Virus record (IMG/VR): IMGVR_UViG_2576861733_000002
Location: 1-64,000 of that record
From: a virus
Lineage: Duplodnaviria; Caudoviricetes
Length of the DNA stretch: 64,000 nucleotides
Direction: 5' to 3' (one strand)
Shown here: positions 7,380 to 34,840 of the stretch, piece after piece
Layout: the number at the start of each line of letters is the position of its first letter
How positions within the stretch are numbered: position 1 is the first letter of the stretch
The notes under the pieces: model-generated
Database searches by the model: none
The model's input: the letters and a program-made list of their open reading frames with translations, nothing else
Told to the model about the DNA's origin: nothing
Made by a program: the position numbers and the translations under genes

Positions 7380-7453
7380 GTCAGATACCTCAGTTAAGAT
7401 TTTATAAGCTTTATCGTTAGTACGAGAGCAATATGCTCTTAATTCGGCTCATG

Positions 7454-8164: not shown

Positions 8165-8165
8165 A

Positions 8166-14882: not shown

Positions 14883-16535
14883 TTATTTACCGGAAGACTT
14901 CACCAGGCCGCGATAATCCAGCGGTGCCACACCGGCATCGATGCGGACCTTGTTGACGATACCGTCAGAGGTGAAGCCTTCCATCTGGTCAAGGTACGGC
15001 GTGTCCACACCATTGAGATACGCCACTTCGATGGTGTCTGTCCCCTGTGCAGATGCCAGATACCACGCAGCTTTATCCGCATCATCAAGACGGGGCTCGC
15101 CAACAATGTCGGCGAAATTCTGCAACGGGTTATTTACCCCGGAGTTGGCATCGGCACCTTTAACGCTGGACGATCGAATCGTCTGGCTGGCGAGCGTTTC
15201 CAGAGCCGTCGGCACAAGCAGGAATGCCGGGCGGATATTCAGTGAATGTTTCGACTCGCTGTCTTTCTGGGTACGCATCAACTGGCGGGCCGCATCAAGG
15301 CTCGTGATACTGATAGCGCCTGTGCTCAGGTTATTGTGGTCGGAGTGGAACAGCGCAACGCCATCCGAAAGTTTCGGGTTCGACGTCAGTACCTTATAAA
15401 CCAGATCACCGATGGTGGATTTCGCCGCGCGCCCCATTTTTTCCGGAATGCCCGTGAGCTGGTTCAGATCGTCATTGATAATCGCCTGGCGGGTAATGGA
15501 GAAAAGCTTACCGTAGGTCGCCAGCGCAATCGGCTCGCCCCGGTCGCTGGTCGTGCCGTATTTATATTCAGCACCTTCGCGAACCTGCGGTAGCGCAGAA
15601 ATATCATTGAGGCCGACGCGGTGAGACACTTTGAAGTCGGACAAGTCCCCCTTTTTCGTCCAGAGCTGGAAGGTTTCTTCGGACGCAGCCCATCCCGCCA
15701 GCAGCGACTTGTGCGCGACATCCAGCAGGATGTTACCAAAGTCAGAAGTGCTGTGAGTAAAGGCCATCCCCACCATCTGCATCGGATTCAGGGACGCAAC
15801 ACCCACACCACGCTCAGTCAGCGACATGCGCGCCAGCTCACGCAGTGTCATGCCGTTGAACACATTTTCATTATCACGTTTTTCGTATCCGGCGCGTACC
15901 ATCAGCGCCTGACGCACGCCGTCACCCACAAAATTGCCGTTCCCGGCATAGATATGTGCGGGTGCCGTTTTGTTGGAGGGGGTGGCGGTTTTTCCCAGCT
16001 CGGCCAGCAGCAGGTCTTTGGCCTGCTCGACGGAACATTCAGGATCCGAAACACATCTGGCCTGAAGCTCCTGGTGTTTACCGCCAAACATCGCGAAAAG
16101 ATCGCCGATACCGTTAACACGGGCTTTCTGCTCCGCGAGCACCTGCGCACGAATGGCCGTTTCGTCAGCGACCGCAGGGGCTGACGGGGTGTTTTGCGGT
16201 GCAGGATTTTCGCGCTGAGCGCTGTTGCGCGGCGGCGCGATCATATTACGAATGCTGCTTGGCATCTTTTCAAATTCCTCAATACGTTTGGAATGGATAC
16301 AGGCCATCGCCTGCAATGACGGGGTTACCTGATCGGCGAAACCGAGGGCAAGGCACTCCGTACCATCCATCCAGGTTTCATCTTCCAGTAAGGCGGCGAT
16401 CTCCTCACTGGATTTGCCAGTTTTCTGTGCATAAGCCGGAATAAGCACGGATTCGACCTTATCAAGCAGGTCAGCGTAATCGCGCATATCGTTGGCATCA
16501 CCCCCTGCAAAGCCCCAGGGCTTATGGATCATCAT
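14883..16535 (-). pseudogene. 3' part of the helper ClpP-protease/major capsid fusion gene (interrupted by the satellite)
   Basis: Begins MMIHKPWG and continues into scaffold and capsid (HSTSDFGNILL...VRIDAGVAPLDYRGLVK); its 5' part is at 27273-27644. Confidence 0.92.
16524..16535. repeat. Satellite att core, copy 1 (ATGGATCATCAT)
   Basis: Identical to 27273-27284; the minus strand encodes M-M-I-H. Confidence 0.92.
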
Positions 16536-16607
16536 GCAATACAATGAATATATCTCGTTGATTCTTAATAATTAAAAAAACCAAAGAGAAATCATAGGAA
16601 TTAGGTC

Positions 16608-16626
16608 GCAATACACATTGCAATAC
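16608..16626. repeat. Putative integrase arm-type sites GCAATACACATTGCAATAC
   Basis: Identical 19-mer at 27123-27141, near the other end of the satellite. Confidence 0.7.
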
Positions 16627-16978
16627 TTGGTTTTACCGATGCTTATGTCAGATGAAGCCCTGTGGCGAGAGTCAGTTGTAACCGGAAGGATAAAGGTCAA
16701 AAGTAAAATCAGAATTCTGCTAGGTCAGGCTGATGCAAATAGCATCCGATGCATCGCAAGTTGCGTACATATCGTTCTATAATGAAAAAAATTTCTAACT
16801 AACTTTATCAAGCGCAAGTGTAGGTGATGACAACAATGCAACGCGCATCACGCCCATACTTGAGTTGTAAAGCTATCGTTAGAATTACAACCTCTTTGTT
16901 ACGCTGATCTTTCGATAAACTTCGTAGCAAAATGGTAAAATTAATAGAATTTTCAGACGCTGGCGCGGGGTGGTAAAA

Positions 16979-17281
16979 ATGAAATTTGTAAATATACACT
17001 CGTCTGAGTTGCCTGAAATTGATACATTTGTTAAAGAATGTATCAACCAAGGACAATGGACCCTGTTTAAGGCTGAGAAAGGCGTTATTAGTGATACAAA
17101 AGTCGCTTTCTTCCTGAAAGCCGGCAAAGACTTTTTTGCGTTGAATAAAGAAGGCAGAGTAATTTCTGTTTTTCAATCATTAGATTATAATATTGAAATG
17201 AATGAGGTAATTCATTTTTCAGATATACCCAAACCTGAATCATTAAGTAATATTGCCAACTTGGGATTCGCAAGAGTTTAA
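16979..17281 (+). CDS. Hypothetical protein, partner of the caspase-like protease
   Basis: Low-GC ORF of about 100 aa ending 18 bp before the next gene. Confidence 0.7.
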   Translation: MKFVNIHSSELPEIDTFVKECINQGQWTLFKAEKGVISDTKVAFFLKAGKDFFALNKEGRVISVFQSLDYNIEMNEVIHFSDIPKPESLSNIANLGFARV

Positions 17282-17299
17282 TACTTAAGGATATGTAAA

Positions 17300-18190
17300 A
17301 TGGGATTAATATCTGGAAACACGCATTGGATATTATTTCTACCTTGCCAGAACCAACCAGAAGATCGCCATGTTCAAGATTTAGTTCATGGCGTTTTTTG
17401 TTTAGAATTATCTGGCATCCAACCCGTTGACATTAGCATTTACATTGACGGACAAAATAGAAATAACTTTAATAAGTTAATTTCAATCGGGACTCAACAT
17501 ACCTATCAAATTAAAACAACTTCTGATTTTTTCGCTGATTGCGATAATAACAATTATGAAAGTATGGTGATGTTTGTTACCGGTCACGGTAGTATGAATG
17601 GTTTGGACTCTGCTCCGATCATAACACCGTATCGTTTATTAGATAGGTTAAAAACCACGCCCAATCTAAAGCAAGCTATTGTTTATCTTGGACAATGCTT
17701 TGCAGGGGTTTTCAATTATTTACCAGCCGGACAACGTAAGAAAGGTGAAGAAGTAGATCCTGATGTAATTTTCATCGGGGCTACGAGTCTTCACGAAAGC
17801 TTAAGCAACCCTACAACGGAAAATATTAATGGTATAGATTATCCATGGGTTGCAAATCAATTCCTGTATCATGTATTCAAATGGATATCATCCCCGCACG
17901 ATATTGATGGTGATGGAAAAAACACTGTCATTGATTCTTATAAGTATGCTGGTATTTCTTCAAATATGACAAACCGTAGAATGAAGATAGGTTCTTTTGT
18001 GGCATCGGTAGACTTGCATGAACAATGGAATGCGGCCAAAAGAGATCATGAGGCAAATCTTGCTGATCCTCAAAAACTCCTGCTCTACAAAGCGTTAGAT
18101 CAGCAGTATTACGAAAAGTTGAACATCAACTATATTCATCAAGAATGTTGGATATTGAATTCAGTCCCTGCTCAATCTATAGAATTTTAA
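17300..18190 (+). CDS. Clan CD cysteine protease (legumain C13/caspase-like)
   Basis: RHVQD, MFVTGHG (His), VYLGQCFAG (Cys), IFIGAT strand and DIDGDG loop. Confidence 0.78.
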   Translation: MGLISGNTHWILFLPCQNQPEDRHVQDLVHGVFCLELSGIQPVDISIYIDGQNRNNFNKLISIGTQHTYQIKTTSDFFADCDNNNYESMVMFVTGHGSMNGLDSAPIITPYRLLDRLKTTPNLKQAIVYLGQCFAGVFNYLPAGQRKKGEEVDPDVIFIGATSLHESLSNPTTENINGIDYPWVANQFLYHVFKWISSPHDIDGDGKNTVIDSYKYAGISSNMTNRRMKIGSFVASVDLHEQWNAAKRDHEANLADPQKLLLYKALDQQYYEKLNINYIHQECWILNSVPAQSIEF

Positions 18191-18367
18191 TTAATTGCCT
18201 CGCTTACAATATATCGCTGCAAGTGCCGTTTTCAGCTCGTAATAACGGCACCTAGAGCTACTCTCGGGCATAGGGTCGATGTTTGATAGTCGTTTCGCTA
18301 TCGTTTGCCTATGAAAACCGGTTACTTCGGCCAGCTCGCTTACATTTAGTATTATCTTTTTTTTCAT
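18191..18367 (-). CDS. Truncated small-terminase DNA-binding-domain homolog (Rpp-like)
   Basis: LNVSELAEVTGFHRQTIAKRL aligns with helper TerS LNINQLAGITGAHRQTVAARL; only 58 aa; directly downstream of the satellite cos. Confidence 0.8.
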   Translation of the reverse strand: MKKKIILNVSELAEVTGFHRQTIAKRLSNIDPMPESSSRCRYYELKTALAAIYCKRGN

Positions 18368-18439
18368 CAATCTAACCTCTGGATGTCGAACAAATAACAC
18401 ACAATCCATCATCTTCTAAATGAGAGCAAAAATAAAAGA

Positions 18440-18570
18440 CTTTAAAATCAGCAGATTGCCAGATGATGATGATGACCATGAATATAGAAAACTAGCCGTT
18501 TCCCGCGCGTGCGCCGCCCCGTGGATGGGCTCCCCAAGGGGAGGACCCATAAATGAGAATTATTATCATG
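18440..18570 (-). other. Satellite cos site (cosQ GGGTCCT 18542-18548; cosN 12-mer GGGCGGCGCACG 18508-18519; cosB-like region)
   Basis: Matches the lambda cosQ/cosN layout and is paralogous to the helper cos at 31950-32075. Confidence 0.85.
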
Positions 18571-18608
18571 TATTCAGTGACGACCGAATCCGCCAGCACG
18601 CGCGGTCA

Positions 18609-20531
18609 TCACGACGCGCCATTCGACTTGACCAGCCCACGATAGTCCAGCGCGGCCACGCCAGCATCGATACGCACCTTCCAGGCCACACCATCGACCG
18701 TGAAGCCGTCCATCTGCTCCAGATATGGCACATCCATACCATCAAGATACGCCACCTCGATAGTGTCCGTTCCCTGAGCGGCGGCCACATACCACTGTTT
18801 GTTATTGGCCTTGTCCAGACGTGGCTCAACAACGACCTGCGCCATATCTTTCACCACGTTGATAATGCCGGGGTTCTGGTTCAGTGTGCCGTCCTGGTCT
18901 ACAGGGAACAGCGAAGATGAGGAGAGCACAGCACGATTGGCGGCCCCTTCCAGCGCGGCAGGCACGAGGATATAGGCCGGGATAACATTGATGGGATCGC
19001 CATTAGCATCCTCCTGAAGGCGCATTGCTTTACGTGCCTCGTTAAGCCCATCAGTGTCCATCCCTTTCGCGATGAGGTTCTTATGATCTGCATGGAACAA
19101 TGTCTTACCATCAGTGAAGCTGGCATTAGCTGTCAGGTGCAGATAGACTAGGTTCCCGACCGTTCGCGCAGCAGCCCGCCCCATCGCCTGGGGAATGGTC
19201 GTAAGCTGGTTCAGGTCATCGTTAATGATGGCCTGGCGGGTAACAGAGAAGATATTGCCATAGGTGGCCAGCGCGATCGGGACACCGCTGTCGCTCGTGG
19301 TGACATATTTATATTCAGCGCCTTCCGGGACTTTCTCCAGTTCAGAGAAACCATTCAGGCCTACGCGCTTGGCTTCGTGGAAATTCGACAAAGAGCCTGT
19401 TTTAGTCCACTGTTGGAACGTTTCCCCGCTGTTCTGCCAGCCAGTCAGCACGGATTTTTCAGCACCACCAGCCAGGATATGTGCAAAGTCGCTGCTGCTG
19501 TGGGTGAAAGCCAGATTAACAATCTGTGAACGATTACCAAAACCGCTAATGCTGACACCGCGATCCACCAGCGAGGCCTGTGCCATTTCAAACAGGCTCA
19601 TCATCGCGTAAGGGTTACCGCGTTCCGCGCGTTCATGCCCCAGGCGCGCATAAAGCCCCTGCCGGATACTGTCTCCCGTAATGTTGCCATTGCCAGCGTA
19701 AATATGCGCCTGCCCGGTTTTGCTCGATGGTGTGGCGCCACGCCCCATTTCCGCCAGGAGCAGATCCTTGGCTTTCTCCGGCGTACAGTCGGCATCTCCC
19801 AGGCACTGCATTTTCAGCGAGTCATGCTTACCACCGAACATGGCAAACAGGTCTTTAATTCCGTTGATGCGGGCATGTTCCGGCGTTGCGGTGCTGGAGG
19901 AACCTTTCGGGCTGGTGATCATCCCTTTTAATTCAGTTGGCATATGTTCAAAATCCTCAATACGTTTCGATTCAATCCGGGCCATAGCGCTTACAGCCGG
20001 CAGCAGTTCATCTGCAAACCCCTGCGCCACGCATTCAGCGCCATTCATCCAGGTTTCTTCTTCCAGCATCGCCGCCAGTGTCTCAGCAGATTTACCGGTT
20101 TTGCGTGCATAAGCCGGGATAAGGACGTTTTCAACCTTGTCCAGCAGCTCGGCATAGTCGCGCATGTCGTTGGCGTTCCCGCCGGAAATGCCCCATGGCT
20201 TGTGAATCATCATGAGGGCGTTCTCAGGCATGACGATGCGATTACCCGCCATTGCAATGACTGACGCCATAGACGCCGCCAGACCATCGATATGCACTGT
20301 GATTTTTGCCGGGTGTTTGCTCAGAAGGTTATAGATAGCGATGCCGTCGAATACGTCACCGCCCGGGGAGTGGATGTTCAGATCGATGTGCGAGACATCG
20401 CCCAGGGCTTTCAGGTCTTCTGAGAACTGCTGAGCAGTGATCCCCCAGCCGCCGATCTCTTCGTAAACCTGAATTGTTGCGCTTGCGCCATCGCTGGCCG
20501 CTTTGATGTTGTACCAGCCTTTCATACCCAT
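18609..20531 (-). CDS. Satellite-encoded ClpP protease-major capsid fusion protein
   Basis: IHSPGGDVFDG, GLAASMAS, MMIHKPWG, capsid C-terminus VRIDAGVAALDYRGLVK; full-length paralog of the split helper gene. Confidence 0.93.
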   Translation of the reverse strand: MGMKGWYNIKAASDGASATIQVYEEIGGWGITAQQFSEDLKALGDVSHIDLNIHSPGGDVFDGIAIYNLLSKHPAKITVHIDGLAASMASVIAMAGNRIVMPENALMMIHKPWGISGGNANDMRDYAELLDKVENVLIPAYARKTGKSAETLAAMLEEETWMNGAECVAQGFADELLPAVSAMARIESKRIEDFEHMPTELKGMITSPKGSSSTATPEHARINGIKDLFAMFGGKHDSLKMQCLGDADCTPEKAKDLLLAEMGRGATPSSKTGQAHIYAGNGNITGDSIRQGLYARLGHERAERGNPYAMMSLFEMAQASLVDRGVSISGFGNRSQIVNLAFTHSSSDFAHILAGGAEKSVLTGWQNSGETFQQWTKTGSLSNFHEAKRVGLNGFSELEKVPEGAEYKYVTTSDSGVPIALATYGNIFSVTRQAIINDDLNQLTTIPQAMGRAAARTVGNLVYLHLTANASFTDGKTLFHADHKNLIAKGMDTDGLNEARKAMRLQEDANGDPINVIPAYILVPAALEGAANRAVLSSSSLFPVDQDGTLNQNPGIINVVKDMAQVVVEPRLDKANNKQWYVAAAQGTDTIEVAYLDGMDVPYLEQMDGFTVDGVAWKVRIDAGVAALDYRGLVKSNGAS

Positions 20532-20716
20532 GCCCCCAGCGTATGCTGATGCCAGTAGTTCACGCTGCTGCGCACAATCTGGCCTTTAGTGGGGACAGGC
20601 ATTTCAGGGTGATTCTTTTTAATGAACTCCTGATACTCCTCGATTTTCTTCATTGTTTCGGCGTCGATATGGACCGTACCGCCCTTATCGTGGGCCGATT
20701 TGTTCTTATCTGGCAT
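20522..20716 (-). CDS. Small putative DNA-binding protein upstream of the satellite capsid gene
   Basis: TVHIDAETMKKI...TKGQIVR pattern resembles ribbon-helix-helix; overlaps the capsid start. Confidence 0.55.
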   Translation of the reverse strand: MPDKNKSAHDKGGTVHIDAETMKKIEEYQEFIKKNHPEMPVPTKGQIVRSSVNYWHQHTLGAWV

Positions 20717-20860
20717 CTTCTTACCCTTATCGTGATTGATGGTACAAGTGCAATCATTGATCACTAAAAGTGGTAAGTAAACTCATTTTAATCATAAAAA
20801 CAGATTAATCAGATTCAGACATAAAAAAACCGGGTTTCCCCGGCCTCAACGAAAGCTAGT

Positions 20861-21241
20861 TTAGTCATCTTTCTCTTGTTTAATTCCTGCCAATACTCCA
20901 GACAATACAGGGTATACGTTGATGACTAACATCAATGTGATGGCAATTATGAGCATTGATGCCCCCCATTCTCCGAGTGGCTTTTTAAACAAGTTTGCAA
21001 TAGCAATTATATTGATTACATATATACCCAAGAAAAGGATAGATATTCCCCATGCCACTGCTCTCACAGGCCTTTTTGACAGACTTTTCTTTCGTTGTAC
21101 ATCCAGAGTTATCCAGGTCATATAAACCGCTATCACTGAGAAAAAAGCCCATGTCAGATAAGCCGATGAGTCACGAAAAGAGTCTGCCATTACACTAGAC
21201 CAGGAAATTATAGCTTCAATTATATCCATATCACTTTTCAC
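20861..21241 (-). CDS. Three-TM membrane protein (satellite cargo)
   Basis: Three hydrophobic stretches, low GC, followed by a terminator at about 20823-20843. Confidence 0.7.
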   Translation of the reverse strand: MKSDMDIIEAIISWSSVMADSFRDSSAYLTWAFFSVIAVYMTWITLDVQRKKSLSKRPVRAVAWGISILFLGIYVINIIAIANLFKKPLGEWGASMLIIAITLMLVINVYPVLSGVLAGIKQEKDD

Positions 21242-21305
21242 CCTTTCTTATTGGTGGCTCTTTAGTACCAGCAGAATATATAAAAATTTAAAAATATGCA
21301 TTTAA

Positions 21306-21533
21306 GTGTTCACCTGTTCACCTTCCCTGAATTAACAATATAATTCATATAGTTAGATGGTGAATACTTTTCTTTCAGGTGTTCACAAGTGTTCACCCTA
21401 CCCTTCACCTTTGAACAATTTAAAGAAAGGTGAACAGGGTGAACACTTGGTGAATACTTCATAATTAAGTGTTCACCTTTTAACACCATGTTATTAATGC
21501 ATTTTTTAACAGGGTGAATACTGGTGAACACTT
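21306..21533. repeat. Satellite replication origin: P4-like TGTTCACC/GGTGAA(C/T)A iteron cluster
   Basis: More than ten direct and inverted copies in AT-rich DNA immediately downstream of the helicase; TGTTCACC is the P4 type I iteron. Confidence 0.85.
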
Positions 21534-21545
21534 TATCTGTAAGTA

Positions 21546-23342
21546 TTACTGTGACACCTCACTTTCTGGTGAACTGCCACATGATGGCATCCAGTCATCA
21601 GAATCATCGCTGAGGGTCACGTTTGACCTGATGCCAGCCTTTGTTTTCCGCTTCTGGTATTCCTTCCCGTATTCCGCCATAGCACCAGGCATATCGGTTC
21701 CGAACCGCATAAGCGATACCGGCTTGTTAAGACCATTGGCCCGCATGTATGCCAGATAAGCGTGATACAGGTAGCGGCGTGGGCTGAATGGCACTATTTC
21801 GGCGTTTCCGATAAACATGCCATCACAGACAACCGATGCCATAAGATAGCCACAGAAGTCCACCAGCGAATCCCCCTCACGCTTGATTGCCAGCGCTTCC
21901 TCTGATTTCTGCTGTTCATGTAGCATCTGTTTTGCCAGGCTCTGATCGGCAAATCGGGTAAGAAGGTGGCGAATGATCACCGCCAGCTCCCCCTCTATCT
22001 TCTCTGCCAGTAGGGGATCCCGCTCATTTTCCGGCACCACTTCGGAAAAGTTGAAAATCACCCGTCGCCGGGAAATACCGCCACTTCGGTCACTGAATGT
22101 CATGGCGTTGTTATTGACTGCCAACACCACCGCAGGGATACGGGTTGAGTAAGGTGCCTTATGTTTTGGATCGATAGACACCTTATCACCACCAGTGATC
22201 GCCTTAATCCCGGCGCCATCCCCGGCATAACGGGTCATATCGGGCATGATGATAAGGGAGTAACCAACCACCAGCGCCCTGTCTCGCGGGTCTTCCAGCG
22301 CTCTCATGCTGGCCGATACCGTGTTGGCCTTTCCTGCCAGCATGGTGCAAATCTCAGCCATCACGCTCTTACCACTTCCCCCCGGCCCCGTAACTTCAAG
22401 AAACAACTGCCAGTCGTACCGGTTCGCCAGCACCAGAAAGAGCGCTGCCAGCACACGATCGGACTTCCGGTCATTATCAGCGACCGAGCGGCGTAACCAT
22501 TTCCAGAAGTTGGGCGCATGGCTGGCCAGTGTTTCACCTTCGGCTGGTGGGCTGAACGGCAGTTCACTCGCAATGAGTAACCAGTCATCTTTCTTGTGCT
22601 CTCTGAATTGCCCCGCACGGGTATCAAATACCCCATTGCTGAACCCGATCAGGTTTCTGGCTGTTACCCCCATTACCGGGAGGCTTAACTTCATGGTTTC
22701 AACCGCCGATTTAATGGCGTTCTGCGAATACGCCACATCAGCCTCAATAAAGATTTGGGCCATATCCCGCTGTAGTTCCTTATCCGGCAACGGAACCCAT
22801 ACCACGCCGTTGTAGTAGTGAACCGTGTCAGAGTCAGCATGGATAGCCAGGTTGCCGTCATAGTGAGCCAGCAACACCTCTCCGCGCTGACTGGCTCCCA
22901 TCTGATTTAGCGCAGGCGTCACATTGTCCTGGCGTTTATCTCTTTTCGTCACAGGAAGAGTAACGACAACATCTCCCGTCCTGATCCTTTCAAGATACGC
23001 ACGCCAGTCCTCCGGATTCCTGTCAGGAATGCCCTTATAAAGCTTCGCATCCTGCACTCCGGCCTTTGCCAGCTTCTCGCCAATAGCATTAATCATGCGC
23101 TGCTCGATATCGCCAGCCAGATACACTCGCGCCGAACGCCGCCCGTCATCAATAATGGACAAGCTGTCCAGTTCCGCCAGTTGCTTAGGCCCAAGGTAAA
23201 CTGGTGGTACATCATCACCCGCCCTTTTCCCTTCGCTCTCGATCCAGTGCCGGGCGTGAGCATATGCATCAGCACCAATGAAAATAATTGCCTCTGTAAA
23301 CTTGTCCTTTGGCAGATATTTTAAGTTTGGAGCACTCTTCAT
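21546..23342 (-). CDS. P4-family primase/SF3 helicase (Pri-Rep)
   Basis: Walker A GPGGSGKS, KAITGGD, RRRVIF and a C-terminal winged helix. Confidence 0.9.
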   Translation of the reverse strand: MKSAPNLKYLPKDKFTEAIIFIGADAYAHARHWIESEGKRAGDDVPPVYLGPKQLAELDSLSIIDDGRRSARVYLAGDIEQRMINAIGEKLAKAGVQDAKLYKGIPDRNPEDWRAYLERIRTGDVVVTLPVTKRDKRQDNVTPALNQMGASQRGEVLLAHYDGNLAIHADSDTVHYYNGVVWVPLPDKELQRDMAQIFIEADVAYSQNAIKSAVETMKLSLPVMGVTARNLIGFSNGVFDTRAGQFREHKKDDWLLIASELPFSPPAEGETLASHAPNFWKWLRRSVADNDRKSDRVLAALFLVLANRYDWQLFLEVTGPGGSGKSVMAEICTMLAGKANTVSASMRALEDPRDRALVVGYSLIIMPDMTRYAGDGAGIKAITGGDKVSIDPKHKAPYSTRIPAVVLAVNNNAMTFSDRSGGISRRRVIFNFSEVVPENERDPLLAEKIEGELAVIIRHLLTRFADQSLAKQMLHEQQKSEEALAIKREGDSLVDFCGYLMASVVCDGMFIGNAEIVPFSPRRYLYHAYLAYMRANGLNKPVSLMRFGTDMPGAMAEYGKEYQKRKTKAGIRSNVTLSDDSDDWMPSCGSSPESEVSQ

Positions 23343-23707
23343 TTCGGGATCCCTCCGCTCATCTGGAACTTGCCAAGCAATGGATGAAACCAGTACGCCG
23401 AACCGTATTTCCGTTTGGCGCTACGGAGAACTAAGCGGGCCGCTTCCCTGAATTTTTCATCAGGCGCAACAAAGCCACCAGATTTCATTTTGACCAGCAT
23501 TACACCCGTGTTTTTCGCCAGTTCCTCGGCCTTTTTAGTCGATATGCCAAACTCGGCCGCCAGCGTAGCGATCGGGGTCATGCCCGGCGGGATCTCCCCG
23601 CCCTGGCTGTCAGTCAGTGAGCGAACCTGCTGTTCCAGCTCCAGCAGCCGTCCCACCAGCACATCAACTCGTTTTTCCAGTTCATTGAATTTAACGTTGC
23701 TGATCAT
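23339..23707 (-). CDS. Conserved satellite hypothetical protein
   Basis: 122 aa, coiled coil plus HTH-like segment, coupled to pri-rep. Confidence 0.7.
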   Translation of the reverse strand: MISNVKFNELEKRVDVLVGRLLELEQQVRSLTDSQGGEIPPGMTPIATLAAEFGISTKKAEELAKNTGVMLVKMKSGGFVAPDEKFREAARLVLRSAKRKYGSAYWFHPLLGKFQMSGGIPK

Positions 23708-24015
23708 GACTGAATCTCCCCATGACGCTTACTGAGCACATAATTTGCCGTGGTGCTGTTTTGCTGCAGCGCCTGGGCTAACCGTGGAAGATGGCGCAAT
23801 GCATCGCCAATCAACTCTAAATCTCTCCGGGCGTCCTCATCTGAGTAGTCTTCGGACTCCACAGCATCGAGAGTCAAATTGCCGATCAGAGTTAATACGC
23901 TGGTTATGGCAAAGACACCTGCCCCATAAACTTCGCTGGACTCGGTTAAATCTTCATCACTGTGGTTTTTGAAGTCAGGGGCTTGCTTAACAAGCTGGTG
24001 GTAGATATCACGCAT
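23704..24015 (-). CDS. Satellite hypothetical protein
   Basis: Overlapping stop/start chain in the early operon. Confidence 0.7.
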   Translation of the reverse strand: MRDIYHQLVKQAPDFKNHSDEDLTESSEVYGAGVFAITSVLTLIGNLTLDAVESEDYSDEDARRDLELIGDALRHLPRLAQALQQNSTTANYVLSKRHGEIQS

Positions 24016-24220
24016 TGCGCACCTCCACATCCTTAAGGGCATAAATGGCCGTGAAAATGTCAGCAGTAATGCAACGGATGCCTCCTATCGCTGTTTCAAT
24101 ATCACCCTGCTCCATTTCGTTGCAGGCAATTTCCAGCGCCACCATCAGCGCATCTACCTGACCGGAACGCGCCATCAACTCAACAAAGTGAATATTGCTC
24201 TCTATGGTCTGCTTAGCCAT
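24008..24220 (-). CDS. Satellite hypothetical protein
   Basis: 70 aa; GGAGG RBS and overlapping coupling. Confidence 0.65.
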
Positions 24221-24491
24221 GACGCACCTCCGGCGGGATATTTATCTCACTGCCGATAATCGACCAGAGAGTTGCACGGTCATAATCAGACCATGTGAAC
24301 GAGTAAGGACTCTCAGTTCTGATTTTTGCTGCAAAGATTAAATTCCAACCGGGCAAGGCTGCACGGGCAGTGTCTTCGGTGTCTGCATCAAAACGCAGGA
24401 CGATGGGGGAGCTCTCCGTTTGGTGCTTGGGGGTGGCCAGGAATAGCCATGTAAATTCAGGGCGAGTTTGGGTATGCTGTTGATCAGCCAT
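24213..24491 (-). CDS. Icd-like (host cell division inhibitor family) protein
   Basis: [13 protein letters not shown]...[17 protein letters not shown] signature typical of PICI/P4-like elements. Confidence 0.78.
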
Positions 24492-24628
24492 AACTGTTAC
24501 CTCAACTAACGGTTTGTGGTTAGACGTCCCGTGAGTGGTTCCAAGCACTTCCGGGACGTTGCTTTTTTCACGTCAAGCGTGATAACGTACGTACGTAATA
24601 GCAGCATCCTATGAGGTTACGTACGTAC

Positions 24629-24820
24629 ATGTCAACAATAAAACGAGATAAAACTCCTAAAGGAGAAGGCTTGTCTCCCACATTCCAAATCCGAATAAGT
24701 CCTGAATTGCGCCAGCAGATGAATGAAGCTGCTGAGCGTGAGGGAGTAAGTCTTGGTAATTGGCTTAAAGGTCTGGCGAGAAATGAACTTATTAAGCAAG
24801 GAATTGAACCTAAAGGTTAG
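24629..24820 (+). CDS. Ribbon-helix-helix regulator (Arc/HicB-like)
   Basis: FQIRISPELRQQMNEAAEREGVSLGNWLK; divergent from the icd-like gene. Confidence 0.75.
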   Translation: MSTIKRDKTPKGEGLSPTFQIRISPELRQQMNEAAEREGVSLGNWLKGLARNELIKQGIEPKG

Positions 24821-24878
24821 TTTTCACATGCTCTCGTCGATTTATTTTTTGCAGTCAATATTAAACTAAGGAATTTCT

Positions 24879-25589
24879 ATGGATAATTTATATACGCCAT
24901 CTGAATATTTTATGTTCGTAGAGCAATTTGATCATTACTTTCCACGAAAAAGCCCTTTTAACTCATTATTATTCGAGTTCAATTATAGATTAGAAGATAT
25001 AGTTGTTTTTCACCGCTTTGTAATCAATACATATGCAAATAATAAAAAAGCAATTGATGTACAATATAATAAATTTAGATTTCTTGATGATGAACAAAAG
25101 AAATCTCTTTCTGATGACGAGTATGAAGCATATCAACTCAGCTTTGCAAGACATATGGAATACATTAACCATCAAACTGATTTGAATGAAAAAGCGTCTT
25201 ACATTGCTAACGATAGTGTCGTTATAAACTTATGGGCCATGAATGAACAATATATGACCAGGGGATTAGCCAACCTAATATGTCAAAAAGAAAATAAAGA
25301 TTTAAGTGAAGTTAAAACGCCTTATAAATGGGATACAATTAAAAGCAAATTCTTGTCATATGGAATCAACTTTGAGACATTACCATCATATGATGACATT
25401 AATGAATGTAGAGTGCTGAATAACAAAATAAAACATCTGAACATAGTAGATTCTGGATTAGAAGTTTTCCCTCCCTTCAAAGGTAAGCTTAACGAATCAC
25501 TTACTGGGATGGCCTTTCCTCTTCAAAAATATATTATAGGCTCTCATCACTTTATAGGCATGCTATTAGAAGAGTGCTCCAAAAAATAG
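24879..25589 (+). CDS. Low-GC cargo protein, possibly HEPN-like
   Basis: 236 aa, helical, with INECRVLNNKIKH near the C-terminus. Confidence 0.55.
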   Translation: MDNLYTPSEYFMFVEQFDHYFPRKSPFNSLLFEFNYRLEDIVVFHRFVINTYANNKKAIDVQYNKFRFLDDEQKKSLSDDEYEAYQLSFARHMEYINHQTDLNEKASYIANDSVVINLWAMNEQYMTRGLANLICQKENKDLSEVKTPYKWDTIKSKFLSYGINFETLPSYDDINECRVLNNKIKHLNIVDSGLEVFPPFKGKLNESLTGMAFPLQKYIIGSHHFIGMLLEECSKK

Positions 25590-25635
25590 ATATATGGCAA
25601 CGTATAGTGTATCGTTCAATACGTTGCCAAATCTC

Positions 25636-25872
25636 TCATTTATTTTTATCGAACCAATCTCCTTTAATCCAAGCTTGCACCTCAGAAAGCCGATACGCAA
25701 CGGCTGACGGCCCAATTTTGATTCGCTTCGGAAATTTTCCTTCCTGTTCCATGCGCCAGCGCGTGGAGTTTGAGAGCGTGGTCATCGCGCGGCATTCGGG
25801 CTCACGAATCATTCGGTCAAGCTCAGGCATATACTGGAGATCTTCTTTTTTCACAACGGATAACATAGCCAT
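25636..25872 (-). CDS. alpA: AlpA-family regulator/excisionase
   Basis: RMIREPEC..TTLSNSTRWRMEQEGKFPKRIKIG..AVAYRLSEVQAWI. Confidence 0.9.
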   Translation of the reverse strand: MAMLSVVKKEDLQYMPELDRMIREPECRAMTTLSNSTRWRMEQEGKFPKRIKIGPSAVAYRLSEVQAWIKGDWFDKNK

Positions 25873-25873
25873 A

Positions 25874-27109
25874 TCAGGCGCTCCTTTTCTTAATCACTTT
25901 GACTGTAACTTCTTCACCCACCAGCCCATCAAGGTAATCAACCCATCGGTCCAGCGCTTCTTGTTTTTGGGGAATATACTTGCTGCGGTTATAGATTCCG
26001 GCCACACCCTTTATGGTGTGTCCCAGCAACTGCTCCACTACATAAAAATCGACGCCCATATCGTTGAGACTTGTTGAGAACGTTCGTCTCAGGTCATGTA
26101 ATGACCAGCGTTTTTCATGTTTCAGAGATATAAAGTTTGTGCATCCCATCGTGCTGACGGTTGAATCAGATTTCAGTTCCCCGAGTATGTACCTACGCCT
26201 TTTAGTCTCTTCGTGCAGGTTTACCATCCACTGCCGCATTTTCTGAGGCACCGGGCGGAGAATCTCTTCACCGTTTTTACTGTGCTCTTTCGGCACCGTC
26301 CAGAGCCATTTTTCGAAGTCCCATTCATCCCATGTGGATAGACGAGCCTCACTGAGCCGGCATCCAAACACAAGGCACAAAATCGCCATCCGTTTTTTGT
26401 AATTCATCACACGGGTTTTGCCCTTACCATGAAAGTAAACGCCCCACAGATCGGCAACGTAGCTTTCATCGAGCAACCGTTCTCTCTTGTCCTGATATTT
26501 ACCGATATCACCAGGGCTTAAGTCATCCAGCACATTGCACCGGACATACTGGCGAACCCGGCAGTATTTGAAGATCTGCTTTAACTCAATCAGCATCGAA
26601 GCAGACTGAACCGGCGCAATTTTCTTTATGCGATCAAAACACTTTATCCATTCCGACAGGCCGCATTTTTCGACAGGGAAACCACCAATATAGGGAAAGA
26701 TGTATCTCTCATAGCGGCGATAGAGCCGCACCGTCTCCTTGCGTTTATCCCTGGCATAGTTTTCAAACCAGTAATCAACAGCGTCCTTCACCGTAACAGG
26801 CGTGAACAGGTTTTCTTTGGTGATTTTATTCTCTATACGTGGATCGAGTCCCTGTGATAGCCATGCCCGGCACTCGTCCCTTTTCTCCCTGGCCTGTTTA
26901 AGTGTCATATCTGGATACTGGCCTAACGTCATCCAGACGGGGGCACTTTGTCGGCCTGAATGCCTGAAGAAAAAAACAAAGCTTACTGTGCCACTCGTGC
27001 TGACTCTGACAGACAGTCCCCGACCATCGGCCACCATCTTTTGACGCTGCTGCGGTTTACCATGCAGGGCTTTTAGCGTCTTGTCGCTTAACTTGTTCTC
27101 GCCAGCCAT
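25874..27109 (-). CDS. int: Satellite tyrosine integrase (P4-like, arm-binding N-domain)
   Basis: DGRGLSVRV, GCRLSE (Arg), SKNG, HDLRRT, LLGH, GIYN (Tyr). Confidence 0.95.
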   Translation of the reverse strand: MAGENKLSDKTLKALHGKPQQRQKMVADGRGLSVRVSTSGTVSFVFFFRHSGRQSAPVWMTLGQYPDMTLKQAREKRDECRAWLSQGLDPRIENKITKENLFTPVTVKDAVDYWFENYARDKRKETVRLYRRYERYIFPYIGGFPVEKCGLSEWIKCFDRIKKIAPVQSASMLIELKQIFKYCRVRQYVRCNVLDDLSPGDIGKYQDKRERLLDESYVADLWGVYFHGKGKTRVMNYKKRMAILCLVFGCRLSEARLSTWDEWDFEKWLWTVPKEHSKNGEEILRPVPQKMRQWMVNLHEETKRRRYILGELKSDSTVSTMGCTNFISLKHEKRWSLHDLRRTFSTSLNDMGVDFYVVEQLLGHTIKGVAGIYNRSKYIPQKQEALDRWVDYLDGLVGEEVTVKVIKKRSA

Positions 27110-27272
27110 AAAACCTCATTCTGCAATACACATTGCAATACACACTTAGCTGCAACGCCGAAAAACAGTAGAAAAGCAATGCAAACAACATTTCTTTTTT
27201 CTTCATAATTAACAATAAGTTAATGAAATAATCTGGTTCTTCATGCGTCCCCATGAGGTAGTGTGAGGGATA

Positions 27273-27284
27273 ATGGATCATCAT
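27273..27284. repeat. Satellite att core, copy 2
   Basis: ATGGATCATCAT, identical to 16524-16535. Confidence 0.92.
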
Positions 27285-27644
27285 CATGGTGTTTTCCGGC
27301 ATAATGACCGGATTGCCGACCATCGCAATGACAGAGGCCATCGATGCAGCCAGCCCATCAATGTGAACAGTGATGGACGCACCGTGATGTTTCAGCGCAT
27401 TAAAAATGGCGATACCGTCAAAGACATCGCCACCCGGTGAATTGATATGAAGATTGATCAGGCTTATATCGCCAAGCGCCTTTAAATCGCTGACAAACTG
27501 TTTTGCCGTTACCCCCCAGTAGCCAATTTCGTCGTAAATAAAAATATCGGCTGTGCTGTTTCCACTGGCCTGCATACGGAACCAGGAGTTACTTCCTGCG
27601 CTGGCTTTCGGACGGTGGGGCGCCCGGTTCTTTGACTTCGGCAC
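27273..27644 (-). pseudogene. 5' part of the helper ClpP-protease/major capsid fusion gene
   Basis: AAGGAGG RBS plus GTG start; IYDEIG, NSPGGDVFDG, GLAASMAS; homology ends abruptly at TMMMIH. Confidence 0.92.
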
Positions 27645-29091
27645 TGGTGCCTCCTTTATCGTTGGAAGGGTCTGTATCAAACACCAGCCCCAGTTCTTTG
27701 TTTTCATCGATTTCAGCTTTCCGGCGCGCTTTGACATCGTCCGGATTGCGCCCGCTGGCACGCACCCAGTCAGATTCCGTCGCCGCGCCACCCCTGATTT
27801 GTGTTTTCCAGGCGTTTGCCTCTTTGACCGGGTCAATCCACGGCATCACCGGGCCGGAATAAACCGCGTTATAAAGCGTGTCCATGTCCGTGCCGCGCGG
27901 TACCGTGATTTCGCCGGAGGCCACAGCCATTTTCAGCCAGGCCCGGTACATGGGGCGGGTTATCGCGCCAATAAACCAGTTCTGCAGGATGAGATAGCCA
28001 TCAGTGGACTCCACCAGCTCCTGCCGCTGCGCGCTGTAGGTGCCGTTGTAGTTTCGTGCGGTACTCGAAAAGCTGAGGCGGGTTCCGGCGGCGACGGCGC
28101 GCAGTTGCCCGTTGCGGAATGTTTCCAGGTTCGGATTGGGGCGGTCTGATTTAATCATTCCGATTTCTTCACCCGGTTGCAGGTCGTCATACAGCATGCC
28201 CGGCTTGATCATCAGCTCGCGGTCATCCTTTCCGGCGCTGTCTTCGTCGTAGCTCTGCCCGTCCCCTTTTTTGATATACATCCCCAGCGCAGCGGCAATA
28301 CGGGCGGCAACCAGCTCCGAATCCTCATACTCTTTCAGTGCGCTGAGCCGCATCAGCACGCCGGAGAGCAACGAATTGCCACGGGTCTGGTGTAGACGGC
28401 GGGTATACTTCAGGTGCAGCATGTTTTCTGCATCAACGTTCTTCGTATCGAGTTGCTTCCCGGTAACGGGCAGGATTTTATAAACCTGGTACGCTTTCGG
28501 GCGTCCCCAGTCATCCAGAAAAACGCCCTGGCTCAGTTTCAGGGATTCGTCACTGGTCATCGGGACAAAATCCGCCTCAAGCGCCTCGAGCCAGAACGGG
28601 ATCCGCGCAGAGGGAACAAGGCTGTTGCCGGTACCGCTGACCATCTGGGCAAATACTTCACCGTCCCGCAACCAGCTGCGAAGCATGAGGCGCTCCAGCA
28701 TGGGGCGGGTAAACTGGCCGGTGACCTCAGGCTTAACGGACCATTCTGCAAATTTTTTACGGATATCCACCACCAGCTTTTTCGCTATCTTCCCGTTGCT
28801 CATTTTCGGGTGAGGTTCAACAACGATCCCGTTGGCACCCACCACCCGTTCTTCGAGCTTGTCGAAGATGCCGATCACCAGGTCGTTATTGTTATCCAGC
28901 CAGCGGGCCTGCTCACGCAGAGAGGCCGCCCCCATCTGGCTCAGCTGGTTAGCCGAGCGATTTTCCCGGCGGGCCTTGTGTGTCCGTGACGGCCGGGCCG
29001 CCTCGTATGCCTGAATAACGGCCCTGGCCCGCAGCCGTGACGCTTTCCATGCCGGAGAAAATATGCCGATTGCATCGTCCAGAATGGTCAT
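27589..29091 (-). CDS. Portal protein (lambda family)
   Basis: LREQARWLDNN, DGEVF, YSAQRQEL, WIDPVKE motifs. Confidence 0.95.
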   Translation of the reverse strand: MTILDDAIGIFSPAWKASRLRARAVIQAYEAARPSRTHKARRENRSANQLSQMGAASLREQARWLDNNNDLVIGIFDKLEERVVGANGIVVEPHPKMSNGKIAKKLVVDIRKKFAEWSVKPEVTGQFTRPMLERLMLRSWLRDGEVFAQMVSGTGNSLVPSARIPFWLEALEADFVPMTSDESLKLSQGVFLDDWGRPKAYQVYKILPVTGKQLDTKNVDAENMLHLKYTRRLHQTRGNSLLSGVLMRLSALKEYEDSELVAARIAAALGMYIKKGDGQSYDEDSAGKDDRELMIKPGMLYDDLQPGEEIGMIKSDRPNPNLETFRNGQLRAVAAGTRLSFSSTARNYNGTYSAQRQELVESTDGYLILQNWFIGAITRPMYRAWLKMAVASGEITVPRGTDMDTLYNAVYSGPVMPWIDPVKEANAWKTQIRGGAATESDWVRASGRNPDDVKARRKAEIDENKELGLVFDTDPSNDKGGTSAEVKEPGAPPSESQRRK

Positions 29092-29303
29092 CCGAACCTC
29101 GCCAGTTTGTAGCCCGGATTGCCCCGGCGTTTGTTACTGATGGCGGCCAGACGACGCTCCCACTCCTGCCGCCCCTTGCGGATCTCGGCAAGATTTTCAA
29201 AGCTCATCTGTTGCCCGTTAAAGGTGATGGACTTGCCGCCCAGCACCGCCATTTCTGCGTCGGTATAACGCTGGATCATGGCCTCAATATCACTCTGGTT
29301 CAC
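29088..29303 (-). CDS. Head completion protein (gpW-like)
   Basis: Small gene between terL and portal; AEMAVLGGKSITFNG. Confidence 0.75.
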   Translation of the reverse strand: MNQSDIEAMIQRYTDAEMAVLGGKSITFNGQQMSFENLAEIRKGRQEWERRLAAISNKRRGNPGYKLARFG

Positions 29304-31408
29304 AGCCAGCCTCCTGACGTAGCCCACGGATTGTTTTCTGTTTCAGATTGCGGCTTCTTGCGCCGGGTTTTGGCTACCGGATCGGGTGTCGCAGGCGCCG
29401 GGGATGTCGCTTCGCCAGTTTCCGGCGGCGCGTCCTCCAGCCACGTTTCCCGCCGTGCCCAGTCTGGCGCATCCGGCCATTTAATCTTTTCGTAGCCGTG
29501 AAGGATCGCCAGTGCATCGGCGTAGACCAGCAGGTCAAAGGCTTCGTTCGCGCCCCGTCCGGGTTTGCTCCATTTGCCATCAGCAGAACGCTCCTCATAA
29601 GTCAGTTCGTCGTAAAACCACGCTCCCAGCCACTCAGGAAAATGGACATAACCCGGCCCCGGCGAATCCCGCCACAGGGCGTTATTCACTCGATCCTTAA
29701 GGGAGTCGGTCTGGAGCAGATAAAGCGGAACATCACCGGCGGCTTTAGCCCGGCGCGCGGTCCTTCCGGTGTTATCCGGAAAAGTCCGGGTGATCAATTT
29801 AGCCCGGCGCTGACTGTCCCCTTTGAACAGGAACACCCGTTTGCCAAGGCCTTCCCGGCGGCACTTACGCCAGAATTTGTATGCGTTGTCGGTAACACCA
29901 TCCTCCCCACCGGAGTCAACGGCCATTGCCATAAGCCGCATGCGTTTTGTCGGGTCACTGGCAAGCGGCCAGGATTTTTCAAACACATCGCTCAGAAGCA
30001 AATCCCAGTCCTCCGGGTAACCCGACGGGTCAACCTGATAACTTTCCCCGTCACCGTTAATGCGCAGTGACTGGCGGATGTTGTAGCGATCAACAATCCA
30101 GCGCTCACCCTGCGCACCGTAGCCCGTGACCTGAACCACGAAACGGCGGTTTTTCCCGGCCTGCACATCGACGGTTGCCGCAATAAAACACACGCCATCC
30201 GGGACGGACCGTTTCGGTACAACCTCCGCCCGCTGCTCCAGCAGTTCGCTTTTACGCTGCTCCATGCTGGCGCGCGGGAGATAGGGCCGCCCGAAGTCGG
30301 TGTTTACCACCGTTTTTAACGTCTCTTCGCTCTGTGTCGCTTCATACTCCTGCTCTGCTGTCAGGAATTTGTAAATCATCTGCGCCCATGTCTGGTAAGC
30401 CGCTGCCGGTCCCTCCATCCAGAAGGAAGCAATACGTGAGCGACGCGGTTCGCCATACCGGTTACCGTCCCGGTCTATTTTTTCCCCGTCGCGAAGCCAG
30501 ACATGCCGGATGTTCAGATCGCGCTTCATCTCTGGTGTAATTTTTCCCTGGCATGCCGGGCACTGGAGATAAGCGGCTTCACTTGCCAGAACGGGATCAG
30601 GCGATTCCCTGTAGCCGGTCATATTGGCAATTTCTGGCTGAAAATATTCGTGGCAATGCGGGCACTGCCAGTACAGGCGACGGCGATCGCCACGGTTGAA
30701 CAGGGACAGGATGCCGGTCGTTGGTGGCGCTTCATGTGCGGTTGCTGGCCGCCATTTTGTGTCGCGAATGTCGCGGCCGGGTGAACTTTCCACGAGCGTC
30801 ATGCCGCCGGACATAAACGTGGTCGTGCGCTTTGAACCGAGGGAAAAAGCATCGCCCTCCCCGTCGATGTCTTCGGGAAAGCGGTCATAGTCGGTTAAGG
30901 CCACGCTTTTATAATCCGACGATGACATGATATTGACCGAGGGCCAGCCGAGTTTCAGGTAGTTACCTGCCCGGAATGTCCGGTCGTGGACGTTATTGTC
31001 ATTGCGGCGGGGGCTCAGCCGTGATTTAACCTCCGGGCTGCAGCGGAAGGTGCGGTCGAGGCGTTTCTTGGAGTGTTCCCGCGCTTTCTCCTCTGAAACC
31101 TGTATCACCAGCATATCCGCCGGATCGCAGACGATGTTATATACAATCCAGCCATCAATCAGGCCGATGGTTTTGCCGGTTCGTGCAGGCCCGACGAACA
31201 CCACCGCATCGTATTCTCTGGACGCAAGGCAATTCATCGGCTCGATGATATAGGGAGCAAGATTAGGATCCCACGGAACGGAGTTACCCGCCCCCATAGG
31301 CACACGCATGTATGAGCTGACCGCATCAGCCACCTTCATACGACGCGGGGCACGTAAAATGCCGGAGACATCGCGGCGGATCCCCCTGGCAGATGCCCGT
31401 TTGGCCAT
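29300..31408 (-). CDS. Terminase large subunit (gpA family)
   Basis: GPARTGKT, LTDYDR, ESSP, CPHC/CPAC, VDVQ, NEAFDLLVY. Confidence 0.95.
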   Translation of the reverse strand: MAKRASARGIRRDVSGILRAPRRMKVADAVSSYMRVPMGAGNSVPWDPNLAPYIIEPMNCLASREYDAVVFVGPARTGKTIGLIDGWIVYNIVCDPADMLVIQVSEEKAREHSKKRLDRTFRCSPEVKSRLSPRRNDNNVHDRTFRAGNYLKLGWPSVNIMSSSDYKSVALTDYDRFPEDIDGEGDAFSLGSKRTTTFMSGGMTLVESSPGRDIRDTKWRPATAHEAPPTTGILSLFNRGDRRRLYWQCPHCHEYFQPEIANMTGYRESPDPVLASEAAYLQCPACQGKITPEMKRDLNIRHVWLRDGEKIDRDGNRYGEPRRSRIASFWMEGPAAAYQTWAQMIYKFLTAEQEYEATQSEETLKTVVNTDFGRPYLPRASMEQRKSELLEQRAEVVPKRSVPDGVCFIAATVDVQAGKNRRFVVQVTGYGAQGERWIVDRYNIRQSLRINGDGESYQVDPSGYPEDWDLLLSDVFEKSWPLASDPTKRMRLMAMAVDSGGEDGVTDNAYKFWRKCRREGLGKRVFLFKGDSQRRAKLITRTFPDNTGRTARRAKAAGDVPLYLLQTDSLKDRVNNALWRDSPGPGYVHFPEWLGAWFYDELTYEERSADGKWSKPGRGANEAFDLLVYADALAILHGYEKIKWPDAPDWARRETWLEDAPPETGEATSPAPATPDPVAKTRRKKPQSETENNPWATSGGWL

Positions 31409-31896: not shown

Positions 31897-31949
31897 GATG
31901 GTGAACACTTTTTAAACAATTCGACATCATTGAAAATCGGGCAGATTAA

Positions 31950-32075
31950 AAATCAATAACCTGCGCACATGATGATGATGACCATGGATCACGAAAACCA
32001 GCCGCTTTCCGCGACCTCGCCGCCCCGTGGACTGGACCCCCTCCGGGAGTACATAAATGATAATCATTCGCATCA
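31950..32075 (-). other. Helper cos site (cosN 12-mer GGGCGGCGAGGT at 32014-32025)
   Basis: ACG-GGGCGGCGAGGT-CGCG versus lambda ACG-GGGCGGCGACCT-CGCG; upstream of terS. Confidence 0.85.
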
Positions 32076-34526: not shown

Positions 34527-34574
34527 AGTCTCTCACCTCGCTGTTTACGGAGGCTGTGTGATTGGAAACAGGAT

Positions 34575-34751: not shown

Positions 34752-34840
34752 ATCAATAATGTAAAATTAGCCGTACCGATTCGTCAATAAGCAACACTCT
34801 GTCAAAGAGTCATCAGAGAGAGATGACCTTTTGCACAGCG

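Follow-up and report, generated by a model that had tools for sequence, protein, structure and literature searches.

The stretch of DNA analysed here ('the window') comprises 64,000 nucleotides of a virus of the class Caudoviricetes (positions 1 to 64,000 of IMG/VR record IMGVR_UViG_2576861733_000002). It includes a lambdoid prophage whose gene for a fused ClpP-type protease and major capsid protein is interrupted by a second mobile element, located between two direct repeats. An earlier note, made from the sequence alone, had described this element as a satellite lodged within the protease-capsid gene of its helper prophage. That description is supported by empty sites in relatives of the helper, by recurrent occupied sites and by an otherwise complete lambda-like helper.

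The interrupted helper gene and its empty and occupied sites

The insertion is defined by four features.

27273 to 27644, minus strand: 5ʹ fragment of the helper protease-capsid gene, 124 codons with a GTG start, ending at CLP_protease position 112
27273 to 27284, minus strand: attL core, the 12-bp identity block adjoining int; it encodes MMIH, the final four codons of the helper 5ʹ fragment
16524 to 16535, minus strand: attR core, the second 12-bp block, an exact repeat of the first
14883 to 16523, minus strand: 3ʹ fragment of the helper protease-capsid gene, 546 codons and a stop, matching CLP_protease from position 113 and also Phage_capsid_4

The 12-mer ATGGATCATCAT has exactly two copies in the window, spaced by 10,749 bp and thus enclosing an element of 10,737 bp; two matches occurred in none of 100 shuffled sequences. 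Read on the minus strand, the repeat is ATGATGATCCAT, which codes for MMIH, and the helper gene is broken between this tetrapeptide and KPWG. The 5ʹ piece (27644 to 27273) aligns to residues 2–110 of the 640-amino-acid paralogue carried by the element, and the 3ʹ piece (16523 to 14886) to residues 111–638, such that the two meet on the paralogue with neither gap nor overlap. The split by a repeat-flanked element that the earlier note had placed at this point is thereby upheld. On the Pfam CLP_protease profile, the 5ʹ piece stops at position 112 and the 3ʹ piece opens at 113; therefore, the four-codon att core spans profile positions 109–112. Past the core, attL runs into non-homologous sequence and the helper frame ends there. 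The GTG start at 27644 follows an AAGGAGG sequence with a 5-nucleotide spacer, which makes a count of 670 codons reasonable for the intact gene. The MMIH-KP codons appear to resemble the catalytic-histidine motif of ClpP-type proteases, a likeness that would account for the strong conservation of the core across targets.

To define the state of the site in relatives, we collected 80 viral loci from IMG/VR via the helper portal protein and located both helper fragments and the satellite integrase in each. The gene is uninterrupted at the junction in 74 of these loci, and in four others (L025, L027, L030 and L071) a 91–94% identical integrase follows the N-terminal fragment at the same point. 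The remaining two are a locus that stops short of the gene (L050) and a locus with an internal deletion (L066). Of the 78 loci that extend to the 12-bp core, 62 carry it exactly (58 empty, four occupied). In the closest empty site, L007 at 99% identity, the N-terminal piece extends to position 7716 and the C-terminal piece begins at 7717, base for base, and positions 7345–9354 form one open frame of 670 codons with CLP_protease and Phage_capsid_4 domains. Thus the restored gene of 124 plus 546 codons, previously deduced from the window, exists uninterrupted in a near-identical relative. A three-way DNA alignment of attB from L007 with attL and attR from the window displays the classic pattern around the 12-bp core. 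A megablast search of isolated phages with the helper 3ʹ fragment gave no match.

Four sequencing runs were compared in the form of assembled contigs, for which uncovered parts and the lack of an attP junction carry no meaning. Two contigs from a soil study, one of 14,191 nucleotides (run X1) and one of 782 nucleotides (run X3), join window positions 16523 and 27273 with 12 letters in common, and represent the empty form of a helper approximately 98–99% identical to that in the window. The search for uninterrupted relatives suggested in the earlier note has therefore returned the predicted join as well as the 74 empty loci. The occupied configuration is present in an isolate run (X2), where a single contig of 26,426 nucleotides carries the helper 3ʹ fragment, a mosaic relative of the satellite and the helper 5ʹ fragment in collinear order, and also at a Rahnella victoriana locus (L087). 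An integrase-based scan of genome contigs produced one close relative, from Rahnella at 92%, and three distant or irrelevant loci. Among sequencing runs screened with the attL stretch, none contained at least half of the sampled words (best share 0.46).

The soil run X1 also yielded a contig of 10,130 nucleotides that aligns along window positions 16519–27283 and carries a much shorter relative of the satellite, with an integrase region of about 96% identity and a distance of about 4.8 kb from core to core. The sequence on either side does not resemble the helper gene, which may indicate an off-target insertion. This integrase has been called the most promiscuous (PMC10111431).

A chimeric assembly, in which a satellite and a prophage were joined through their homologous capsid genes, could be suspected given that the record is a metagenome- or genome-derived provirus with two paralogous capsid genes in the region. 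However, the junctions fall at the 12-bp repeat and not within the paralogous stretches, which are 71–73% similar, and the same architecture and spacing recur in independent records. The arrangement is therefore not attributable to assembly, and we regard an artefact as exceedingly improbable. Simple mosaic recombination between the paralogous capsid genes was likewise rejected, given junctions at the 12-bp core and outside the homologous stretches.

Gene content and class membership of the satellite

Helper-embedded phage-inducible chromosomal islands (HE-PICIs) were described by Tommasini, Mageeney and Williams (2023; PMC10111431), whose set of 491 elements occupies 14 sites within nine lambdoid late genes. 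One HE-PICI site is named C:CLP_protease:110. Some of its members reside in prophages, and 24 members from Escherichia coli interrupt the CLP_protease gene of a PICI that is itself located at tRNA-Ile2 (PMC10111431). The main genes of the element described here are all encoded on the minus strand and are co-oriented with the helper late operon. Its features, from attL to attR, are the following.

27123 to 27142, minus strand: int-side copy of the HE-PICI doubled motif, TGTATTGCAaTGTGTATTGC, starting 131 nucleotides past the last base of the helper 5ʹ fragment
25874 to 27109, minus strand: tyrosine integrase, 411 amino acids (PF00589, PF13356)
25636 to 25872, minus strand: AlpA-type excisionase/regulator, 78 amino acids (PF05930)
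24879 to 25589, plus strand: 236-amino-acid open reading frame (ORF) of unassigned family, in the place of the published 'Bro zone'; 95% conserved in the E. coli relative
24611 to 24820, plus strand: 69-amino-acid HicB / YlcI-YnfO-like small DNA-binding protein
24213 to 24548, minus strand: Icd-like protein (NF033153, 63.9 bits against a cut-off of 25; phrog_1743)
23339 to 24220, minus strand: three small ORFs of 70, 112 (phrog_6805) and 122 (phrog_6610) amino acids
21546 to 23342, minus strand: D5-type primase-helicase, 598 amino acids (D5_N, DUF5906, Pox_D5; phrog_864)
21306 to 21531, unstranded: presumed origin with 11 GGTGAACAC-like iterons in both orientations, directly 3ʹ of the primase gene
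20861 to 21241, minus strand: 126-amino-acid predicted membrane protein without a family match
20522 to 20764, minus strand: 80-amino-acid protein (phrog_4934), whose gene immediately precedes the capsid gene and overlaps it
18609 to 20531, minus strand: satellite ClpP-protease/major-capsid fusion, 640 amino acids, 65% and 55% identical to the two helper fragments
18441 to 18564, minus strand: cos-like site, 75% identical to helper positions 31946–32068
18191 to 18412, minus strand: mini-TerS, a 73-amino-acid ORF with a likely start at M16 (18367) that gives 58 amino acids; N-terminal DNA-binding domain of TerS only
16970 to 18190, plus strand: cargo cassette in a low-GC region, encoding a 103-amino-acid protein (phrog_30138) and a 296-amino-acid predicted cysteine protease
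16608 to 16627, minus strand: far-end copy of the doubled motif, with one mismatch

The components that the earlier note had recognized, namely int, AlpA, an Icd-like protein, a helicase, iterons, a paralogous protease-capsid gene, cos and a mini-TerS, were all recovered by family or sequence searches. Matches to GGTGAACAC with at most one mismatch number 26 in the window, and 11 of these are packed into 226 bp (21306–21531) just past the primase stop. A terminator-like hairpin (20847 to 20826) follows the gene for the predicted membrane protein. Promoter-like sites in the element are fewer than in shuffled sequences (13 versus 19 ± 4) and terminator-like sites are about as many (12 versus 10.7), and therefore our regulatory claims are limited to noting single sites.

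The position and orientation of the element correspond to those of HE-PICIs. It lies inside and breaks a prophage late gene, and its attP holds no replacement sequence, as judged from the abutment of the fragments both on the paralogue and on L007. The genes for the integrase, AlpA and the primase are all on the minus strand, as is the interrupted late gene. The att core occupies CLP_protease positions 109–112, compared with position 110 in the name of the published site, and the interrupted gene is a cognate of lambda gene C. Of the four-zone layout, the Integration, Replication and Late zones occur in order, and the 'Bro' position is taken by the 236-amino-acid ORF and the YlcI/HicB-like ORF, with no Bro-N match.

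The doubled motif tgTGTATTGCantgTGTATTGCa is reported to be unique to HE-PICIs, where two co-oriented copies are located 81 ± 2 and 132 ± 2 from the attP centre (PMC10111431). Exactly two matches exist in the window, both on the minus strand and co-oriented with the element, at the published distances; none of 100 shuffles contained any match. By coordinate arithmetic the two copies would be 211 bp apart in attP, compared with 81 + 132 in the paper, subject to the counting convention of its authors. The int-side copy is 131 nucleotides from the end of the helper fragment in the window, in all four occupied IMG/VR loci and in L087.

The integrase shares 91–94% amino acid identity with integrases at the same site, including 94% for an E. 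coli element that interrupts the CLP_protease gene of a tRNA-Ile PICI. It is also 54% identical, without gaps over 411 amino acids, to an integrase located in a broken lambda-E-type capsid gene in E. coli (L131), where the downstream gene order is the same as in the window and a copy of the motif is present. This pairwise similarity suggests membership of the HE-PICI integrase clade. The best E. coli relative of the whole satellite (76% coverage, 84% nucleotide identity) resides in the protease-capsid gene of the tRNA-Ile PICI. This E. coli locus (L001; NZ_CP024240.1, 2385838–2414653) is a satellite within a satellite, in which the host PICI has a full-length DUF1441 TerS; this nested configuration has already been described (PMC10111431).

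Both the class to which the element belongs and its insertion site are known from published work, in keeping with the statement in the earlier note that the class is not wholly new. It resembles the C:CLP_protease:110 HE-PICIs in target position, integrase type, doubled motif and spacing, co-orientation with late genes, the gene set of int-alpA, Icd-like protein, primase and capsid, and an attP free of replacement sequence (PMC10111431). We see no essential difference from this group. The copy in the window is located in a full prophage, and its replication, cargo and 'Bro-zone' modules differ from those of the E. coli copies. With a length of 10,737 bp (range 10–20 kb), int and alpA, a primase gene with a downstream origin, a cos site, a capsid gene and few other virion genes, the element also has the make-up of Gram-negative PICIs. 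A P4-type satellite was rejected as an identity, as no matching genes were seen in family scans of the element.

Two further systems are informative. The satellite Eco567.11capE in prophage 50icd likewise sits in a helper capsid gene, carries its own capsid paralogue, has a cos in common with its helper and uses an integrase of the same family (PMC10111431). However, it targets the lambda E-type capsid gene (E:Phage_cap_E:80) instead of a protease-capsid fusion, and it is described in that source as being without terS, whereas the element in the window retains a mini-gene for the TerS DNA-binding domain. Capsid-forming PICIs also encode a capsid protein and a protease, but they supply all capsid-production and packaging proteins and steal only tails (bioRxiv 10.1101/2022.09.08.507074). 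The element described here carries only the protease-capsid gene and the TerS-domain mini-gene, and has no portal, TerL or connector genes.

Packaging functions, cargo and the helper prophage

The packaging and head genes that precede the split gene in the helper (27589 to 31908, minus strand) and the adjoining cos are arranged as follows.

31946 to 32068, minus strand: helper cos; the start of the Escherichia phage LLS record is equivalent to window position 32025
31908 to 31408, minus strand: TerS (phrog_141)
31408 to 29300, minus strand: TerL
29327 to 29088, minus strand: gpW-like head-tail adaptor
29091 to 27589, minus strand: portal

Positions 18441–18564 of the element are 75% identical to helper positions 31946–32068, which lie directly upstream of the helper TerS gene. 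Both stretches contain CCACGGGGCGGCG, which has only these two copies in the window, the satellite copy being at 18524 to 18512. The LLS record has an annotated 12-nucleotide 5ʹ cohesive end whose first base aligns to helper position 32025. This alignment places cosN in the helper and, by extension, near 18519 in the satellite. Over the 12-nucleotide cohesive stretch, the first eight bases of satellite and helper are identical and the last four differ.

The mini-TerS matches only the first third of the helper TerS family (positions 13–61 of 183 in phrog_141) and ends about five residues further on. It is 51% identical to residues 14–50 of the helper TerS, with the HRQT helix in common. Translation probably begins at M16, giving a protein of about 58 amino acids, because the E. 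coli copy has an upstream stop and a Klebsiella cluster is 56 amino acids long. This single Klebsiella cluster, annotated as DUF1441, comprises the short relatives found by protein search. Comparison with the E. coli copy (72.5% nucleotide and 72% amino acid identity) gives a dN/dS ratio of about 0.08 over 57 codons, with synonymous sites saturated, which indicates purifying selection on a maintained gene and not debris. In the Rahnella relative, no mini-TerS was detected between the capsid gene and attR (E ≤ 1e-4), and thus the gene is not universal in the site group. A full-text literature search on DUF1441 returned no paper with satellites in its title, as judged by titles.

A parallel is offered by EcCICFT073, another Gram-negative cos PICI that exploits a lambdoid terminase, and that encodes a small late-zone protein near its cos with an N-terminus resembling the TerS DNA-binding domain (Fillol-Salom et al. 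2019, PMC6739421). Such Rpp proteins are 144–153 amino acids long, with an N-terminal winged helix-turn-helix and a C-terminal dimerization helix, and have a cosB unrelated to that of the helper; a crystal structure of RppC has been reported (PMC6739421). In contrast, the mini-TerS is by sequence a genuine paralogue of the TerS domain of the helper, located beside a cos that is 75% like that of the helper. EcCICFT073 integrates in the chromosome (PMC6739421), whereas the element in the window is integrated in its helper. Assignment to the Rpp family was rejected, given that the 58–73-amino-acid protein ends about five residues past the DNA-binding domain, a judgement that concerns family membership and not mode of action. 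A PDB sequence search at E values up to 10 found only an unrelated endonuclease, although the presence of the RppC entry in the searched set was unchecked. From its domain content, the mini-TerS could bind cosB-type sites or the helper TerS domain.

The cargo genes are encoded on the strand opposite the main satellite genes, in a region with a GC content of 36% (17001–18000). The 296-amino-acid protein has 235 representative relatives at E ≤ 1e-3, and its H96-G97, Q132-C133 and DxDxD loop are invariant or nearly so among 66 aligned sequences hand-picked from 150 listed. Its AlphaFold model is confident (pLDDT 97) and best matches legumains, a GPI transamidase subunit and caspase in the PDB (E about 1e-7, TM 0.5); a language-model atlas also indicates a fold of the legumain/caspase type. 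Thus the protein is predicted to be a cysteine protease with this fold. A homologue of the 103-amino-acid protein is encoded directly upstream of the 296-amino-acid homologue in 32 of 40 viral loci, and three of the other eight are cut at a contig end. The setting is an HE-PICI in only three of the 40, and the cassette occurs mostly outside satellites. None of 10 satellite proteins matched PADLOC. Satellites are known to carry anti-phage systems, which makes the cassette a candidate, but a role in defence is a guess.

Beyond the packaging genes, the helper encodes a head decoration protein, neck proteins, a tail tube protein, G/T-like chaperones, a tape measure protein, M/L/K/I-like tip proteins, J and a fibre, as well as an endolysin, Q, replication proteins, CII, an exonuclease and an integrase (48845–49903). 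All inspected late and early genes are open frames that match their families over the full length, and the protease-capsid gene is the sole visibly broken virion gene.

Other features of the neighbourhood were also recorded. Two full-length copies of the STnc100 small RNA family (RF02076) lie in the Q-to-lysis region of the helper, at 34573–34780 and 36408–36605 on the minus strand (100.9 and 88.8 bits). Two HNH endonuclease genes are present on the minus strand at 33680–34357 and 37994–39046 (phrog_59 and phrog_96), one of them between the lysis genes and cos/TerS. Window positions 50000–64000 hold a second prophage in tandem with the helper, with genes for a HicB-like protein, a Peptidase_S24 (LexA/CI-type) domain protein, a GtrA/GtrB-type glycosyltransferase module, a tail-fibre protein and a phage lysozyme.

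Proposed course of induction and its alternatives

We consider it very probable that the element is an HE-PICI of the C:CLP_protease:110 group that integrated via the 12-bp MMIH core and that excises and is packaged in the manner proposed here. Its integrase would have recombined the attP core with the identical 12 bp in the ClpP-like domain of the helper gene. Upon induction, the composite of helper and satellite would excise and replicate, and helper late transcription would then read into the satellite, whose Int and AlpA would excise it. This second excision would restore the helper gene and release the satellite as a 10.7-kb circle, to be replicated from its own origin. The helper terminase could then package the satellite at the lambda-like cos of the latter, into heads built on the helper portal and fitted with helper tails. 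Before satellite excision, the helper would be unable to make its own protease-capsid protein, such that the satellite would set the timing of helper head production and probably lower helper yield. The idea of excision as a switch was proposed for the class in the Discussion of PMC10111431. Measurements on the E-site model 11capE in the same paper showed that the composite excised and replicated and that the satellite then left it precisely, although no virions were recovered.

Several points weigh against this reading. The published induction concerns a different site group, that of the lambda E-type capsid gene, and its virions were not recoverable (PMC10111431). Excision, replication and packaging at the present locus are predictions from sequence, and the run data, being assembled contigs, are unable to reveal rare excised molecules within a lysogen. 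The putative clade placement of the integrase derives from pairwise identity. Finally, neither a Bro-N domain nor a C4/isrK immunity RNA was detected in the element (at the Rfam gathering threshold, no C4/isrK or other RNA was found in the satellite), though both are reported in many members (PMC10111431).

The composite might instead be stranded, with the satellite, the helper or both immobile, and the insertion would then be a relic that leaves the prophage defective. A truncated appearance has been noted for many HE-PICI helpers (PMC10111431), excision at this locus is a prediction and the prophage stands in tandem with a second one. However, int and alpA are intact, as are the two 12-bp cores and the two arm motifs, the inspected helper genes are all open with full-length family matches, and the empty site in relatives of about 99% identity suggests recent mobility. 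We therefore judge a stranded composite to be improbable.

The capsid gene of the satellite raises a different alternative. Its product shares 90–91% identity with the capsid proteins of E. coli-type HE-PICIs, 78% with its counterpart in the tRNA-Ile PICI and 75% with that in the Rahnella satellite. The identity to its own helper is 55–65%, and no full-length match in 50,697 records of isolated phages exceeds 57%. High identity among satellites of three genera (75–91%), compared with at most 57% to isolated phages, suggests a satellite-specific capsid lineage, and from these comparisons the gene looks like an old satellite gene rather than a recent capture. The copy of the att core inside this gene differs at two of 12 bases, both changes being synonymous.

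Such a gene might serve as a backup copy that makes the switch leaky. Satellite protease-capsid protein produced by read-through from the late promoter would build heads on the helper portal without or before excision, and the insertion would swap shell proteins instead of gating head production. The paralogue is full length and co-oriented, has both domains intact and is conserved (its amino acid identity is 90% to the E. coli copy and 75% to the Rahnella copy, and the E. coli element as a whole has a nucleotide identity of 84%), and this role is suggested in PMC10111431 itself. However, the satellite protein is only 55–65% identical to that of the helper and thus may not fit the helper portal, decoration protein and neck; the capsid operon is preceded by a terminator-like hairpin; and a knockout of the capsid gene was tolerated in another PICI (PMC10111431). 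We regard a backup role as possible but doubtful.

The HE-PICI lineage of this element might stand halfway between classical and capsid-forming PICIs by taking over head production at three levels, a view that is tentative and rather unlikely to hold in full. The helper gene for protease and shell may be silenced in cis, shell and protease may be supplied from a long-standing satellite lineage, and the 58-amino-acid TerS-domain paralogue may aim the helper terminase at the satellite cos, as a device distinct from Rpp. For the last of these, the mini-TerS could occupy cosB-type sites or pair with full-length helper TerS.

Because both class and site have already been published, the value of this example lies in what it adds. 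A mini-TerS under purifying selection that is not an Rpp, a satellite capsid lineage and a two-gene cargo with a legumain-fold protease seem to go slightly beyond PMC10111431, and all three are experimental leads. Because an empty site of near-identical sequence exists and the helper appears complete, the locus is well suited to the kind of induction and packaging experiments that were unsuccessful with the published model. More broadly, it offers a clean and fully mapped case of 'regulated gene integrity', in which one mobile element acts on another and the shell-and-protease gene of a helper is held broken by its parasite.

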